Positions 7,833 to 16,272 of a DNA stretch of 21,064 bases are shown here, piece by piece. The notes below the pieces were generated by a model. That model saw nothing but the letters and a program-made list of their open reading frames with translations, was not told the origin of the DNA and ran no database searches. The stretch's first letter is position 1; every line of letters starts with the position of its first letter. This DNA is from Methanobacteriota archaeon (GTDB taxonomy: Archaea > JAADCQ01 > Methanopyri > Methanopyrales > Methanopyraceae), in NCBI GenBank assembly GCA_027064305.1, contig JAMOPY010000005.1, forward strand, positions 1 to 21,064. Direction: 5' to 3'. The translations under genes and the position numbers were made by a program.

Positions 7833-8516
7833 TTACAGGAGGCGTTTTAGGTGCGTAATAAACTTGTGTAACCGCCTGAAGGTATCACGGCGCGGGTGCA
7901 CAATCACAGCCGATCCCCTACCCTCCACGATCATCTCGGCGGCGCGCTCCGGATCCTCATCGTCGATCGTGTACCGGTCGATCCCCACCCCCTCCACGTA
8001 CTCCACGCCGAGCTCGTCGAGGATGCCCCGGATCCAGTCCGGCGTCCGCACCCCGATCAGCAGCCTCAGGCCCGCGTCCCGCGCCGCCCGCCCGAACCCG
8101 TGCACCACGGACGGGTGCAGCTTCGGCCCCAGGTCGTCCTTCCAGCCCCGCCTCGGCACCTTCCCCCGGAAGAAGGCCGTGTGCAGGGGCCCGCACAGCG
8201 TCAGGTACCGCGCCCCGTCCACGAGCCTCAGGGCCCCGAGGACGGCCTCCCGGATCTTCCCCTCCGGCACGCCCGTGGCCAGCGAGGTCCGATGAACGCC
8301 GATGTAGCCGGGGCTGAGGTGCAGCGCCAGCTCGTACCCCTCCTTCCTCAGCCGGTCCACGTACCGCACGTCCGGGTGGTACTTCTTCAGGCTGCCCGCG
8401 ACGGACCACACGATCCGACCTCCGAGGTTCTCCACGCGCCGCCGCGCCAGCTCCACCTCCGAGTCCGGCACCTCCTTCTTCGACGGGTGGTCGATGAACA
8501 CCAGGAACTCGCTCAG
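7833..8516 (-). CDS. Hypothetical protein, possibly a divergent NodB/polysaccharide deacetylase fold
   Basis: FLVFIDHP, GYELALH and AVIVHP resemble NodB motifs; start is CTG 8516 (RBS GGGGGAG) or GTG 8501. Confidence 0.55.
   Translation of the reverse strand: MSEFLVFIDHPSKKEVPDSEVELARRRVENLGGRIVWSVAGSLKKYHPDVRYVDRLRKEGYELALHLSPGYIGVHRTSLATGVPEGKIREAVLGALRLVDGARYLTLCGPLHTAFFRGKVPRRGWKDDLGPKLHPSVVHGFGRAARDAGLRLLIGVRTPDWIRGILDELGVEYVEGVGIDRYTIDDEDPERAAEMIVEGRGSAVIVHPRRDTFRRLHKFITHLKRLL
7855..7870 (-). promoter_or_regulatory. Putative BRE/TATA promoter of the tfe operon, embedded in the upstream gene's 3' end
   Basis: Minus strand ACACAAG-TTTATTAC about 40 nt upstream of tfe ATG 7816, in a conspicuous AT-rich patch. 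Confidence 0.55.
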
Positions 8517-8528
8517 CGGTACTCCCCC

Positions 8529-10703
8529 TCACTCCAGGTGCTTCAGCGGCTCGCGCCACCACGCCTCGAGCGTCTCCCGGCTCACCTCCAGCCGCGCCGG
8601 TCCCGCCTCGACCCGCAGCACCCCGTCCCCCGTCACCTCACCGACCACCTCGGCCGGGACGCCCGCCTCCCGCGACTCCTCCAGCACCCGGTCCGGCTCG
8701 TCGGTGACCACGAGCGCCCGCCCGTGGCTCTCCGAGAACAGCAGGTAGTCCCAGCGCGGCGCCCGGCCCGGGGCGCGGGAGAGATCCACCTCCGCCCCCA
8801 CCTCGCCCAGCGTCTCCGCGAGGACGACCAGGAGGCCCCCCGTCGAGACATCCCGGATCGCGGACGCGCGGGCCCCCCGCGCGAGGCGGCGCAGCAGCCG
8901 GTGCAGCCGGCGCTCCTCCCGGTACCGCACCCGGGGCACCTTCCCGCCCTTGATCTCGTGGTACTCGATCAGGTACAGGGAGCCGCCGAGCTCCGGCCGC
9001 GTCTCCCCCAGGAGGACGATCGACTCCCCCTCCTCCGGGGTCCTCGGGAAGTCCTCCAGGTGCTCCAGCCCCTCGATCAGGCCCACCGCCCCGACGACCG
9101 GGGTGGGGTTGACGGGGCCGTCCTCCTCGTGCTCGTTGTACAGGCTCACGTTGCCCCCCACGACGGGCACGTCGAACCGGCGCGCCGCCTCCGCGAGCCC
9201 CTCGATCGACCGCCGCAGCTGGTAGTACACCCGCGGGTTCTCCGGGCTGCCGAAGTTGAGGCAGTCGACGAGGCACAGGGGCCGCGCGCCCACGGTGGCG
9301 ATGTTCCGGAGCGCCTCCGCCACGCAGCCCTCCGTGCCCGCCTTCGGGTCGATCAGGACGTGCCGGGGGTTGGAGTCCGTGGTCAGGGCGAGGGCCCGGT
9401 CCTCCAGCCCCTCGTGCTGCAGCCAGAGCACCGCGGCGTCGTGCCCGGGCCCGACCAGCGTGCGCCCCTGCACCCCGTGGTCGTACTGCCGGTAGACCCA
9501 CTCCCGGAGGAGGGGGGACGCGTTCGGGGAGGAGAGGATCGCCCTCGCGGCGTCCTCCGGGTCGGGCTCCGGCACGTCCACGTCCTCGGGGTAGGAGTAC
9601 GGTTCCTCCTCCCACTCGAGCGTGGGCGCCCCGTCCGCGAGGAACTTGGCCGGGACCCGGGCGACGAGCTCCTCCCCGTCGCGGACCGTGAGGTACCCGT
9701 CGTCCGTCACCCGGCCCACCACGGCGGCCTCGAGCCCGTACCGCTCGCACACCTCGAGGACCTCGTCCACGTCCTCCGGCGACGTCACGATGAGCATGCG
9801 CTCCTGGGACTCGGAGAGCATGATCTCCCAGGGCTCCATCCCCTCCTCCCGCAGCGGGACCCGGGAGACGTCCACCTCGACACCGACGCCGCCGTCCGCC
9901 GCCATCTCGGCCGCGGCGCAGGTGAGCCCGGCCGCGCCCAGGTCCTTGCACCCCTTGACCAGGCCCCGCCGCACGAGCTCGCGCAGGGCGAGGATCAGCA
10001 GGCGCTCGGTGAAGGGGTCGCCGATCTGGACCGCGGGACGGTCCTCCTCCTCGGACGACTCGTCCAGCTCCTCCGAGGCGAAGGCCGCGCCTCCGATCCC
10101 GTCCCGGCCCGTGCGCGCCCCGATGAGGACGAGTACGTCCCCCGGCTCCTCCGCCCGACCGCGCACGATCTCGTCCCGACGCACCACGCCCACGCACATC
10201 ACGTTCACGAGCGGGTTGCGCGCGTAGGAGGGGTCGAACTCGAGCTCGCCGCCCACCGTGGGCACGCCGATCCGGTTCCCGTAGTCCGAGATCCCGCGCA
10301 CGACCCCGTCCACGAGGTAGGGCACGCGCTCCGCGTCCAGGGGGCCGAAGCGGAGCGGGTCCAGGAGGGCGATGGGGAAGGCGCCCATGGAGAGGACGTC
10401 CCGGACGATCCCGCCCACGCCGGTGGCCGCGCCGTTGTAGGGGTCCACGTAGGAGGGGTGGTTGTGGCTCTCGATCCCCACCACGAGCGCCCACTCGTCG
10501 TCGATGGCGACGACGGCCGCGTCGTCCCCGGGCCCCACGAGTACGTGATCCGCCTCGGTCGGCAGCTGTCGGAGGAGGCGCCGGGTGCTGCGGTACGCGC
10601 AGTGCTCGGACCAGAGGTTCTCGAACATGGCCAGCTCCGTCTCGTTCGGCTCGCGACCGAGCTCGCGGCGGATGAGCTCCAGATCCTCCTCGGTGAGCGT
10701 CAC
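8529..10703 (-). CDS. purL: Phosphoribosylformylglycinamidine synthase subunit PurL
   Basis: [70 protein letters not shown]. Confidence 0.97.
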
Positions 10704-10711
10704 GGGTGGGA

Positions 10712-10785
10712 CCCCCTCGGGGAGTGCGTAACGTCGTCACTCCCGGCCCCGAAGGTCAGCAGACAGCGGGCTCCTCATCGGGGGG
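10712..10785 (-). ncRNA. Box C/D 2'-O-methylation guide sRNA (dual guide, 23S rRNA)
   Basis: Minus strand: CCCCCCG ATGAGGA(C) GCCCGCTGTCTG CTGA(D') spacer GTGACGA(C') CGTTACGCACTCC CCGA(D) GGGGG; terminal C/G stem; both guides complement archaeal 23S rRNA motifs as recalled. Confidence 0.88.
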
Positions 10786-11665
10786 ATAAGTTGACCGCGT
10801 ACTCCCACAGCGGTCGGACGTCGAGCTCCCCCTCCAGGGTTCGCGTGCACATGGGGCAGGGCGTGATCACGGGCTCCCCGGACCGACGCAGCGCCCGGAC
10901 GGTGTCGGGCGAGGGCTCGCCGACCAGGGCCCCGCCCCCGCAGCAGCGGTGCCGTCGGGGTGGGGTGCGGACGTGGTCGGGCAGGGCGGACAGGACCGCT
11001 TCGTCCAGCCCGTGCCGGACGAGGTGGCACGGGGACTTGTAGGTGGCCCCCCGGGGCACGCCCTCGAACTCGGCGATGGCGGCGTAGTACAGGGGGCGTT
11101 CGCCCAGCACCTCGATGCAGAAGTCGAGGCAGCCGGGGCAGAACACGACCACCGCGTCGTACTCCTCGAAGAGCCGCCGCCACCGCTCCCGCACCCGCTC
11201 CGGCACCTCCTCACCCCGCTTCCGGGCGAAGTTCAGGCAGCAGGGCTCCTCGCGCCCCAGCGTGGCCAGCCCCGCCCGGCGCGCCAGGCGCAGCGCCGAC
11301 TCCAGCCACTCGCGGCGGCTGCGGATCGTGCAGCCGAGGACGGCGACGACGTCCCCGTCCAGGGGCTCCCCCTCGCCCTCCAGCTTCCTCGGGTAGGGGG
11401 TCCCGCTCCGGAGGGCGCGCTCGACGGCGCTCGGGGTCGGTTCCTCCGCCCGGAGCCCGGCGAGGAGCTCGGTGTGCGGGATCCCGTGCGGGCAGACCCG
11501 CTCGCAGAGCCCGCACAGCGTGCAGTCGCTGGCCAGCTCGAGGGCCTCCTCGAGACGTCCGGCGGCGGCGAGCGTGTTGAACCGGCGCCGGGGCACGTTC
11601 ATGGGGCAGCGGGACTCGCAGGCGCCGCACCCGTCGCACCGGGTGAGGGCCCGCCGCGGGTTCAC
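10775..11665 (-). CDS. HdrD/GlpC-like Fe-S oxidoreductase (2x[4Fe-4S] plus two CCG domains)
   Basis: [12 protein letters not shown] and [12 protein letters not shown]; GC...CC...CPGC and PCHL...CCGGG...CPMC; GTG 11665 overlaps the FAU-1 stop (GTGA). Confidence 0.85.
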
Positions 11666-13119
11666 GGCTCGAACCCCTTCCAGACGGGGTGCGGTCGGAC
11701 CTCCTCCAGCCCCCGCTCCTCCACGCGCTTGGCCGTTTCCCGGGCGAGCTCGGCGAGCTCCTCCGGGATCCAACCCTCGTCCACGGCCCGCTCCAGGTCG
11801 TCCTCGTCGATGATCTCGCGCTCGCCTTCCTCGGGCTCGACCACGTCGATCTCGAGGTCCACGTAGCGGGCCCCGTCCCGGGTGATCTCGACCGGCGTGT
11901 TGACGTTGTAGTACCGGCCCTTCAACTCGCCGTCCTTGTTGTAGTACTCGTGCACGGTGACCATGGAGCCGTCGGGGAGCAGGGTGATCGCGTAGTCGCC
12001 CTCCTCGATGGGCTTGTCCAGCCCGTCGTAGTACCCGGGCCCCTTCATGCGGCGCCGGACCTTGAGGAGCCCCTCCGTCGGGTCGTACGACTCGACCCGG
12101 GGCTCGCCGCCGAGCTTCTTCACGCCGCGCCCGGGCTTGACGTGGTAGATGTCGACCCGGTCCCCCTCGGAAGGGCCCTCGGAGCGGGTGAGGCACTCCA
12201 TGAGGCGCTCGGTGACGGCCTCCTCGTCGAGCCGCTCGAGGAAGGGCTCCACGGTGTCCACGGCGACGCTCGCGGCGCGGCTGCGGCACTTGAAGTAGTG
12301 GTGGCCGGTGATCGTGGGGAGGACTCGGGCGCGGACGCGGTCCAGCTGGTGCTTGGTGAGGGCGTGGAGCTCGACCTCGACCTCCCGGTACTCGACGATG
12401 GGGCCGGGCTCGTCCATCCGCTCGGCGCGCTGGAACAGTCGCTTCCGCTCCTCGATCAGCCGCTCGACCTCCTCGGCCAGCTCGTCCCCGGAGCGCCCCT
12501 CCGCGGCGGTGCGCCAGATGAGGCCCCAGCCCTCGGGCACGAGCGCCTCGCCCAGCCGCCGGAGCCGCTCCCGCTCCTTCTCGTCCCGGATCTTCCGGCT
12601 GACCTTGACCCCCTCCACGGGGAGCAGGACGGCGTACTCGCCCGCCACGGAGACCTCGGTGGTCAGCTTGAGCGGTCCCTCGGACACGGGCTGGGCGACC
12701 TGGACGACGACCTCCTCCCCCTCCTCCACCAGCTCCGACTCCTCCTCGCTCAGGAACCCGCGCAGGCCGGAGCCGAGGTCGATGACGGCCACGCCCGCCC
12801 GGTCGTCGATCTCCTCGACCACGCCCTTGAACACGCTGCCCTCGCCGACGCGCTCGGTCGTGACCGTGGCGAGCGTTTCCCGGCGGAGGAGGTCCAGGAA
12901 GTCCTCGACCGGCTCCCGCTCCCCGTGCACCTCGATCCCGTGGCGGTTCCTCGTGTCCCGCACGTCCACGTCCGGGGAGCCGTCCTCGAACTCCGCGTCG
13001 GGGAAGCGCTCGAGGATGTCGTCCGAGGGTTGGGTGATCCGGAGACCGTGATCCAGGCACAGCTTGGTGAGGGCCGTGGAGTATATCCCGCGGATCCGGA
13101 CGCGGTAGTCGTCGCTCAT
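11662..13119 (-). CDS. aubA: RNA-binding protein / ribonuclease FAU-1 (RNase G-like plus DUF402)
   Basis: [14 protein letters not shown]1 domain, [43 protein letters not shown]; ATG 13119 after GGGGTGT (alternative GTG 13128). Confidence 0.92.
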
Positions 13120-13144
13120 CCGGGACACCCCGGGGGGACAGGGG

Positions 13145-13444
13145 TTGGCCGGCGCCGACGTGCTGGAGGAGGTGTTCCGGGTGATCCGGCGGCGGATCGA
13201 GGAGCGGCCGGAGGGCTCCTACGTGGCCGAGCTGACGCGCGACGACGGCAAGCCCGCGTTGAACAAGATCTGCGAGAAGATCATCGAGGAGGCCGGCGAG
13301 CTGATCCTGGCCGCTAAGGACGATGACCGCGAGGGCGTGGTTTATGAATCCACCGACCTGATCTTTCACGTGATGGTGCTGCTGGCCTACCTGGACGTCG
13401 AGCTAGGGGAGGTGTTCGATGAGTTCGCGCGGAGGAGGCGGTGA
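13145..13444 (+). CDS. hisE: Phosphoribosyl-ATP pyrophosphohydrolase
   Basis: [41 protein letters not shown]. Confidence 0.95.
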
Positions 13445-16195: not shown

Positions 16196-16272
16196 GGGCC
16201 CGCAGCTCAGCCTGGCAGAGCGCGGCCCTTGCGAGGCCGTGGCCCCGGGTTCAAATCCCGGCGGGTCCACCA
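16196..16272 (+). tRNA. tRNA-Ala(UGC), encoded CCA, C at position 8
   Basis: Acceptor GGGCCCG/CGGGTCC with G3:U70, D-stem GCTC/GAGC, anticodon stem CGGCC/GGCCG with loop CT-TGC-GA, T-arm CCGGG-TTCAAAT-CCCGG, ACCA end. Confidence 0.97.

Follow-up and report, generated by a model that had tools for sequence, protein, structure and literature searches.

The closest described system is the C/D sRNA set of Methanopyrus kandleri, for which 126 sRNAs were reported (Su, Tripp & Randau 2013, PMC3695527); a part of Dennis 2015 (PMC4644070) gives the count as 127. These sRNAs are 55–97 nt long, abundant in small-RNA libraries, closed by weak terminal stems and mostly directed at rRNA, and most of them were reported to be circular (PMC3695527).

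Box C/D sRNAs that share sequence with a neighbouring gene have also been described. Passages of Lui et al. 2018 (PMC6009581) present 23 Pyrobaculum cases in which box C provides the stop codon for the gene upstream, and discuss excision from the mRNA and interference of L7Ae with translation. According to parts of the review PMC7994747, Tripp 2017 found that 25% of sRNA genes contain a stop codon belonging to the gene upstream, in nearly half of these cases within box C, and that the boxes are essential to maturation and the flanks irrelevant. The same parts state that many sRNA genes have a neighbouring gene no more than 25 nt away, and that promoters of their own are absent from most. Furthermore, the L7Ae 5'-UTR k-turns treated in passages of Daume et al. 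2017 (PMC5539422) likewise place a k-turn that can bind L7Ae just before a start codon.

The locus studied here lies at positions 10712 to 10785 of the window, the whole 21,064-nt stretch of DNA that was analysed. It is the same kind of RNA as the M. kandleri set, from another species. The genome has 70% G+C and the sRNA uses the box C/box D pair AUGAGGA/CCGA, whereas the orthologue in the congener G002 uses AUGACGA/CUGA. We consider it highly probable that the locus encodes a bona fide archaeal box C/D sRNA with two guides, both predicted to be active. It is a typical dual-guide box C/D sRNA, and its arrangement is already known in heat-loving archaea. A stop codon in box C is likewise seen in the sRNAs of Lui et al. 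and Tripp. Unlike the cases in those passages, the sRNA here fills the 71-nt spacer and also covers the ribosome-binding site of purL. The k-turns in the passages of Daume et al. are dedicated mRNA elements, whereas the k-turn here belongs to a complete guide RNA and its effect on purL is hypothetical. Given its deep coverage in small-RNA runs, the G002 orthologue very probably figures in the published catalogue already. This particular sRNA is not mentioned in the portions of the main texts of PMC3695527 and PMC4644070 that were covered.

Comparison with Rfam found no family at its gathering score. At E<=10 the only hits were to two archaeal C/D sRNA families, both below threshold: sR42 (RF01127), with 15.5 versus 38 bits, and sR40 (RF01297), with 15.0 versus 50 bits. 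The consensus of sR40 resembles the sRNA in its boxes and in its end pattern (AUGAGGA ... CUGACC ... CCCCGAGG). Membership in sR40 or sR42 was rejected, as the scores were far below gathering and the guide regions differ.

For a Methanopyrus-like genome that lacks annotation, the analysis contributes one well-supported guide RNA and, from the same scan, about 30 more. Its most useful output is the prediction of methylation sites in the GTPase-associated centre of the 23S rRNA.

Anatomy of the element and its flanking genes

The features of the locus are collected in Table 1. Direct reading of the minus strand confirmed the complete C/D'/C'/D layout with a terminal stem that the original prediction had placed at these coordinates.

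Table 1. Features of the box C/D sRNA and of the genes around it (positions in the window)
Feature	Position	Strand	Basis or remark
Entire box C/D sRNA gene, about 74 nt, both strands of the terminal stem included	10712..10785	-	direct reading; alignment; orthologue RNA
Terminal stem, 5' strand, CCCCC	10780..10784	-	pairs with 10716-10712
Box C, AUGAGGA	10772..10778	-	UGA 10777-10775 is the stop of the Fe-S gene
D' guide, GCCCGCUGUCUG, 12 nt	10760..10771	-	G10764 is N+5
Box D', CUGA	10756..10759	-	alignment
Internal loop, 15 nt, variable	10741..10755	-	direct reading
Box C', GUGACGA	10734..10740	-	direct reading; alignment
D guide, CGUUACGCACUCC, 13 nt	10721..10733	-	A10725 is N+5
Box D, CCGA	10717..10720	-	direct reading
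Terminal stem, 3' strand, GGGGG	10712..10716	-	5 bp with 10784-10780
Shine-Dalgarno-like GAGGGGGUCC for purL	10709..10718	-	covers GA of box D, the entire 3' stem and three nt beyond it
Fe-S oxidoreductase-like gene, 2x[4Fe-4S] ferredoxin and CCG domains, 296 aa	10775..11665	-	most likely start GTG 11665
RNase E/G and DUF402 gene, preceding the Fe-S gene	11662-13128	-	domain search
purL (FGAM synthase subunit II)	8529..10703	-	GTG start at 10703; TIGR01736

The final codons of the Fe-S gene contain the 5' strand of the terminal stem. This strand belongs to a run of six C at 10785-10780, in which C 10785 is unpaired, and G 10779 stands between the stem and box C. The two guide spacers agree with the expected length of about 12 nt and with the range of 11–13 nt found genome-wide. 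Both internal boxes of a D'/C' motif were found around the loop. This loop holds a possible CC-UUCG-GG mini-hairpin, and it is the longest D'-C' loop among the 32 matches of the genome scan described below.

Compared with RUGAUGA/CUGA, each terminal box carries one change, G at position 5 of box C and C at position 2 of box D. In a k-turn these two positions normally form a U.U pair, which stacks on the tandem G.A pairs. In this sRNA the G can pair with the C, so that a G-C pair replaces U.U. Both GA dinucleotides of the k-turn are intact in AUGAGGA and CCGA, and the 5-bp stem adjoins them. The minimum free energy fold of the sRNA was unremarkable (z = -1.42), single-sequence folding being uninformative for the box C/D sRNA class.

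A strict four-box regular expression gave 32 matches in the real genome versus 0 in the reversed genome; the 32 include one or two overlapping registers of a single locus (C12). AUGAGGA served as the C box in 16 of the 32 matches and CCGA as the D box in 25, and AUGAGGA/CCGA was the commonest box pair in this genome. Across the 32 matches, position 5 of box C and position 2 of box D co-vary. Complementarity to rRNA of 9 nt or more was found for at least one guide in 27 of the matches, and 12 had double guides within 100 nt.

Upstream of the sRNA, an open reading frame at 10775..13369 on the minus strand is terminated by the TGA at 10777-10775 within box C, which bears out the proposal that box C contains the stop codon of the Fe-S gene. 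Its family matches (4Fe-4S dicluster and CCG cysteine-rich domains) are confined to the last third, and no NCBIfam equivalog reached its cut-off. The real start of the Fe-S gene is most likely GTG 11665, because the reading frame with high third-position G+C (GC3) switches near 11650 and because this GTG overlaps the stop of the preceding open reading frame as GUGA.

Downstream, purL was identified with 996.8 bits by TIGR01736, versus a cut-off of 525.75. Its GTG lies 13 nt past box D, and the whole 71-nt spacer between the Fe-S gene and purL is filled by the sRNA. The 3' end of the 16S rRNA of this genome reads ...GGAUCACCUCCA. When GAGGGGGUCC was paired with it by hand, 9 of the 10 positions paired (one of them as G.U, with one mismatch), 5 nt before the GUG. 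The ribosome-binding site of purL is therefore likely to consist of the GA of box D, the 3' stem and three further nucleotides, and the 3' stem thus stands where this site had been expected.

Predicted targets in the 23S rRNA

The assembly of this genome (1.21 Mb, 50 contigs, 89% complete) contains a 16S gene, and searches with a covariance model and by blastn with congener 23S rRNA found no 23S rRNA in it. Because of this gap, the pairing between guides and target rests on the 23S rRNA of the congeners, which was available for four of the five (G001, G002, G004 and G005). In all four, the D' guide is Watson-Crick-paired to AGACAGCGGG over 10 contiguous nt, and the D guide to GAGUGCGUAAC over 11. 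The two sites are 41 nt apart, with the D-guide site downstream. In the 16S rRNA of the genome itself, the best matches of the two guides were just 8 and 6 nt.

The N+5 nucleotide of the D' guide, G10764, stands opposite a C that MAFFT, run against E. coli rrlH, aligns to E. coli C1049. That of the D guide, A10725, stands opposite a U that the same alignment places on E. coli 1090, which is an A in E. coli. The duplexes span 1046-1055 (D') and 1087-1097 (D) in E. coli numbering. This numbering is consistent with the thiostrepton-contact adenines A1067 and A1095. By the usual helix limits, the D' target presumably corresponds to distal helix 42, on its 5' strand, and the D target to helix 44 with its loop. 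The two targets would then flank helix 43 of the GTPase-associated centre on both sides. The original prediction had named C1049 and U1090 within helices 42 to 44 and had set a threshold of at least 9 nt of complementarity, and on the congener 23S rRNA the sites, the helices and the threshold were all borne out, position 1090 being U in these archaea.

Passages of Dennis 2015 (PMC4644070) call for pairing of 9 bp or more, Watson-Crick at N+5, and require the two targets of a double guide to lie within 100 nt of each other on one rRNA. In the four congeners the duplexes of 10 and 11 pairs include the N+5 pair, Watson-Crick in both, and the distance between the targets falls within that limit. 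The chance expectation was assessed with 20000 shuffles per guide, scored against the congener 23S rRNA and the 16S rRNA of the genome. A shuffled D' guide reached at least 10 nt in 1129/20000 and a shuffled D guide at least 11 nt in 122/20000, while both did so in 3/20000. Shuffles in which both guides reached at least 9 nt within 100 nt numbered 22/20000. Taken alone, the D' match is weak evidence, because guide and rRNA are both G+C-rich.

A second sRNA, C42+15117, is predicted for the same region, at the E. coli equivalents of 1075 and 1097, and its target shares 4 nt with that of the D guide. Two ribose methylations are thus predicted in the GTPase-associated centre by the sRNA in the window, and four together with the second sRNA (E. 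coli 1049, 1075, 1090 and 1097). A thiostrepton-resistance methyltransferase 2'-O-methylates A1067 in the GTPase-associated centre of bacteria and confers antibiotic self-resistance. It too places a ribose methyl group in this rRNA domain (helices 43-44), but it is a protein-only enzyme and acts on another nucleotide. A literature search returned, by title or abstract, no mapped archaeal methylations in the GTPase-associated region of the 23S rRNA, and this centre is not among the methylation hotspots named in the covered portions of Dennis 2015 (PMC4644070).

Conservation in the genus and RNA at the orthologue

A 381-nt query consisting of the element and its flanks found one syntenic place in each of the six genus genomes, with identities of 94% and 90% in two genomes and 71–74% in three. 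The element precedes purL in all six. Cores of 11 nt of the D' guide and 12 nt of the D guide are invariant across the six genomes, and the D'-C' loop is rewritten. The variation in the boxes stays within what is permitted: AUGAGGA or AUGACGA for box C, CUGA or CCGA for box D' (CCGA in four of the six orthologues), and CCGA or CUGA for box D. Exceptions are box D of G001, which reads CUUA and should damage the k-turn, and the C' box of G004, which is degenerate.

The terminal stem is CCCCC/GGGGG in this genome, AUCCC/GGGGU in G001 and G002, and GGGUCC/GGACCC in G004. Changes on both sides were found in 3 of the 6 stem pairs. The covariation score was 0.425 versus a shuffle mean of 0.152, and none of 500 shuffles reached it; coming from six related sequences, this score is supportive and does not amount to a probability.

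The Fe-S gene stops at the UGA of box C in five of the six genus genomes. In G005 the stem is one C shorter, which shifts the frame, and the Fe-S gene reads through box C and the D' guide to the UGA of box D'. This frame shift may be real or may be an assembly error in a genome of 260 contigs. The start of purL lies 11–13 nt past box D in five of the six genomes; in G004 it lies 28 nt from box D and has a separate GGGGUGA site. A strict exact-pattern search for the D guide hit four of the six genomes of the phylum of G000, which comprises the same six genomes only; the two genomes that it missed deviate in a box. The exact pattern, which shifted or diverged guides escape, was found in 0 of the 133 genomes of the phylum of G011.

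RNA from the orthologous locus was available as contigs, rather than raw reads, from four size-fractionated libraries (X1 to X4) of one 2013 study (P1, organism A). The orthologue in G002 lies in L013, on the minus strand at about 1718-1646. An RNA of about 70 nt had been expected, and contigs of 68–71 nt spanning 1647/1651 to 1716/1718 of L013 were found at this congener orthologue in 4/4 runs. Their mean word depth was 677–1461 versus 3–6 on the flanking coding regions; one depth figure is given per contig, and contigs neither measure the level nor prove the ends. Poly-T loose ends were found before L013 positions 1649, 1650 and 1651 and correspond to A-tailed 3' ends of a minus-strand RNA; the four loose ends are single records, three in X1 and one in X2. 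The 3' ends of the orthologue accordingly fall after CUGA-GGGG, CUGA-GGGGU and CUGA-GGGGUC, and the 5' end lies 2–5 nt before box C. Further contigs measured 59–60 nt, 30 nt of which fall in the 3' end region; this is the length expected of a circular-junction unitig at k=31, and no joint was listed.

The genome itself encodes the proteins of the C/D RNP. All scored over the Pfam cut-offs, fibrillarin with 345.7 bits, Nop with 252.4 and L7Ae with 102.4. The genes for fibrillarin and Nop5 lie next to each other on C40, and the genome encodes two proteins of the L7Ae family.

Biogenesis and the junction with purL

One strand carries a run of genes in which the Fe-S gene follows the RNase E/G-like gene and is itself followed by the sRNA, by purL and by others. 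The sRNA is most likely released from an operon transcript, because no TATA-like element was found 25–35 nt upstream when the six orthologue sequences were read by eye and because the same-strand genes are tightly packed. The bound proteins would shield the body of the RNA and nucleases would trim the remainder. From what is established for C/D RNPs, L7Ae would bind the C/D k-turn and the C'/D' motif, and Nop5 and fibrillarin would then assemble on the sRNA. Once AGACAGCGGG is bound by the D' guide and GAGUGCGUAAC by the D guide, fibrillarin would 2'-O-methylate the nucleotides that correspond to E. coli C1049 (a C) and 1090 (a U). We infer methylation at both predicted sites, as well as co-transcription and this route of processing.

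The evidence above also bears on readings in which the locus is no methylation guide at all or is a guide of another kind. Short boxes and G+C-rich guides match easily, as the shuffled D' guides show, and the fold of the sRNA is inconspicuous, which is what a chance motif in an intergenic spacer, devoid of RNA function, would look like. However, such a motif would have to match with both guides at once, which happened in only three of the 20000 shuffles, and to show the full set of boxes, for which the reversed genome gave no match. It would also have to keep its guides invariant in six genomes, acquire a covarying stem and yield an abundant RNA of the right size at the orthologue, so that its probability is close to negligible. 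The position of the two targets, which bracket helix 43 at a distance of 41 nt, would also suit a folding chaperone for the three-way junction of helices 42-44, which would keep the two strands separate during the folding of helix 43, methylation occurring at one site or at none. A role as chaperones was proposed for double guides in passages of Dennis 2015 (PMC4644070), and the second sRNA on the same region, with its overlapping target, would fit it as well. The chaperone role in place of double methylation is nevertheless very unlikely in our view, since both N+5 pairs are Watson-Crick within perfect duplexes, as methylation needs, and no finding speaks against methylation.

With respect to the origin of the transcript, the sRNA might instead have its own promoter, or contain that of purL, in which case there would be no polycistronic precursor and no link between maturation and the mRNA. 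An A/T-rich CTTAT stands just before the stem (TTTAT in G001, G002 and G003), and TATA-like motifs occur at about 20% of archaeal C/D sRNA genes according to a part of the review PMC7994747. No RNA contig at L013 bridges the sRNA and its flanks, which fits a separate transcript, but the uncovered stretches at 1620-1636 and 1722-1772 prove nothing on co-transcription. The A/T-rich element, however, abuts the 5' end of the RNA (1716-1718 in L013) and does not lie about 25 nt upstream of it, is absent in G004, and encodes conserved Leu-Ser codons of the Fe-S protein. Together with the tight same-strand packing, which includes the GUGA start/stop overlap one gene upstream, this makes a separate promoter very doubtful, and we retain release from the operon transcript as the preferred origin.

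Release from such a transcript raises the matter of purL. Coupling of sRNA maturation to purL expression is plausible and has been published in general form. Maturation would remove the ribosome-binding site of purL from the downstream fragment, and maturation and translation of purL would therefore be mutually exclusive on any one molecule. A dual use of the element, in which the k-turn and the terminal stem act in cis on purL and the site is either buried by L7Ae or the full RNP on the unprocessed transcript or removed by excision, agrees with the overlap of GAGGGGGUCC with box D and the whole 3' stem, with its pairing to the 16S rRNA and with the close spacing of the purL start in five of six genomes. 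The 3' ends at the orthologue, after GGGG, GGGGU and GGGGUC, suggest that the mature RNA carries the site away. Translational repression by L7Ae through 5'-UTR k-turns is described for Sulfolobus in passages of PMC5539422, and a 5' overlap reduced a downstream reporter in Tripp 2017 as related in a part of the review PMC7994747. Several findings weaken the exclusion of purL translation by maturation. The overlap is dispensable, given that purL of G004 starts farther away behind its own GGGGUGA. The end CCGA-GGGG(G)UC is also that of at least three other sRNAs, C23+67133, C36+48500 and C42+15117, after which no gene start was found, and the sequence therefore need not have evolved as a ribosome-binding site. 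Moreover, a supported gene start lies within 20 nt past box D in about 10 of the 32 pattern matches, which fits plain compaction of the genome, and with gene order conserved throughout the genus the link to purL is not independent evidence. Dual use is for these reasons rather unlikely.

The further proposal that the sRNA doubles as a switch for purL, in which each transcript would become either a guide RNP, with the site lost or buried, or a template for PurL, since box D and the 3' stem make up the site, is distinctly unlikely. If true, it would tie the first committed, ATP-costly purine steps to the demand for ribosome-modification guides, and the neighbouring RNase E/G-like gene of the same operon could supply the cutting.

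The sandwich of the sRNA between two genes offers a clean natural test case for the published and little-tested idea that excision of an sRNA competes with expression of its host mRNA. This arrangement is not unusual, in this genome or in print. By a rough test (open frame of more than 390 codons, third-position G+C of at least 0.9), the UGA of box C terminates a coding frame in 5 of the 32 pattern matches, perhaps in a sixth. A box C stop and a gene start within 20 nt occur together in two of the 32 only, the sRNA at 10712..10785 and C39-3810.

Predicted guide targets in 23S helices 42-44

As listed in the table, two further box C/D sRNAs of the same genome (G000) had guides directed at the 23S rRNA. 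The sRNA on contig C42 had 10-nt matches in the same rRNA region as the sRNA of the window, with predicted methylation sites (N+5) at E. coli-equivalent positions C1075 and 1097. Its D' target had 4 nt in common with the D target of the window sRNA. For the sRNA on contig C39, the D guide was directed to E. coli-equivalent A1029. Helices 42-44 are therefore predicted to carry at least four ribose methylations.

Coordinates of the features
Feature	Position	Strand	Remark
Second sRNA	G000, contig C42, from 15117	+	outside the window
Further sRNA	G000, contig C39, from 3810	-	outside the window
D'-C' loop of the window sRNA	window 10741-10755	-	15 nt
Altered 5' stem and shifted end of the Fe-S ORF, orthologous locus L011 (G005)	about 1712-1690	-	stem one C shorter
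RNase E/G + DUF402 domain gene	window 11662-13128	-	adjoins the Fe-S gene upstream
Example of a long spurious ORF	window 7896-11042	+	not a gene
tRNA gene	window 16196-16269	+	Rfam match above gathering

Box pairing and the D'-C' loop

Across the whole G000 genome, position 5 of box C co-varied with position 2 of box D among the 32 four-box matches, with G/C, C/C, U/U and other combinations at 16, 7, 6 and 3 loci, respectively. In this genome of 70% G+C, C/D k-turns with the canonical U.U pair were in the minority, and a G-C pair mostly stood in for it. A G-C pair likewise takes the place of U.U in the k-turn of U4 snRNA. The D'-C' loop of the window sRNA was the longest among the same 32 matches (median about 5.5 nt). 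It contained CC-UUCG-GG, possibly a UUCG mini-hairpin, and comparison of the orthologues showed that this motif was not conserved in the congeners G001, G002 or G004.

Variation among orthologous loci

The shorter 5' stem of the G005 locus shifted the Fe-S reading frame, which crossed box C and the D' guide, stopped at the UGA of the D' box and ended in ...SPDEEPAVC. Either this variant is real or the assembly is in error here. Box D of the G001 locus (L014) read CUUA and not CUGA or CCGA, with loss of the G of a sheared pair. The G004 locus (L015) was without a good C' box, and its sRNA was separated from purL by 28 nt with a GGGGUGA site of its own.

Surroundings in the window

The RNase E/G-DUF402 gene, which we take to be FAU-1-like, overlapped the Fe-S gene start with its stop (GUGA); a protein that cuts or binds RNA may therefore be encoded in one operon with the embedded sRNA. 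Antisense or out-of-frame ORFs of great length, such as one of 1048 aa across purL on the plus strand and the 864-aa extended form of the Fe-S ORF, were rejected as by-products of the 70% G+C; the real reading frames were singled out by third-position G+C. Throughout the window, the tRNA gene was the sole Rfam match above gathering.
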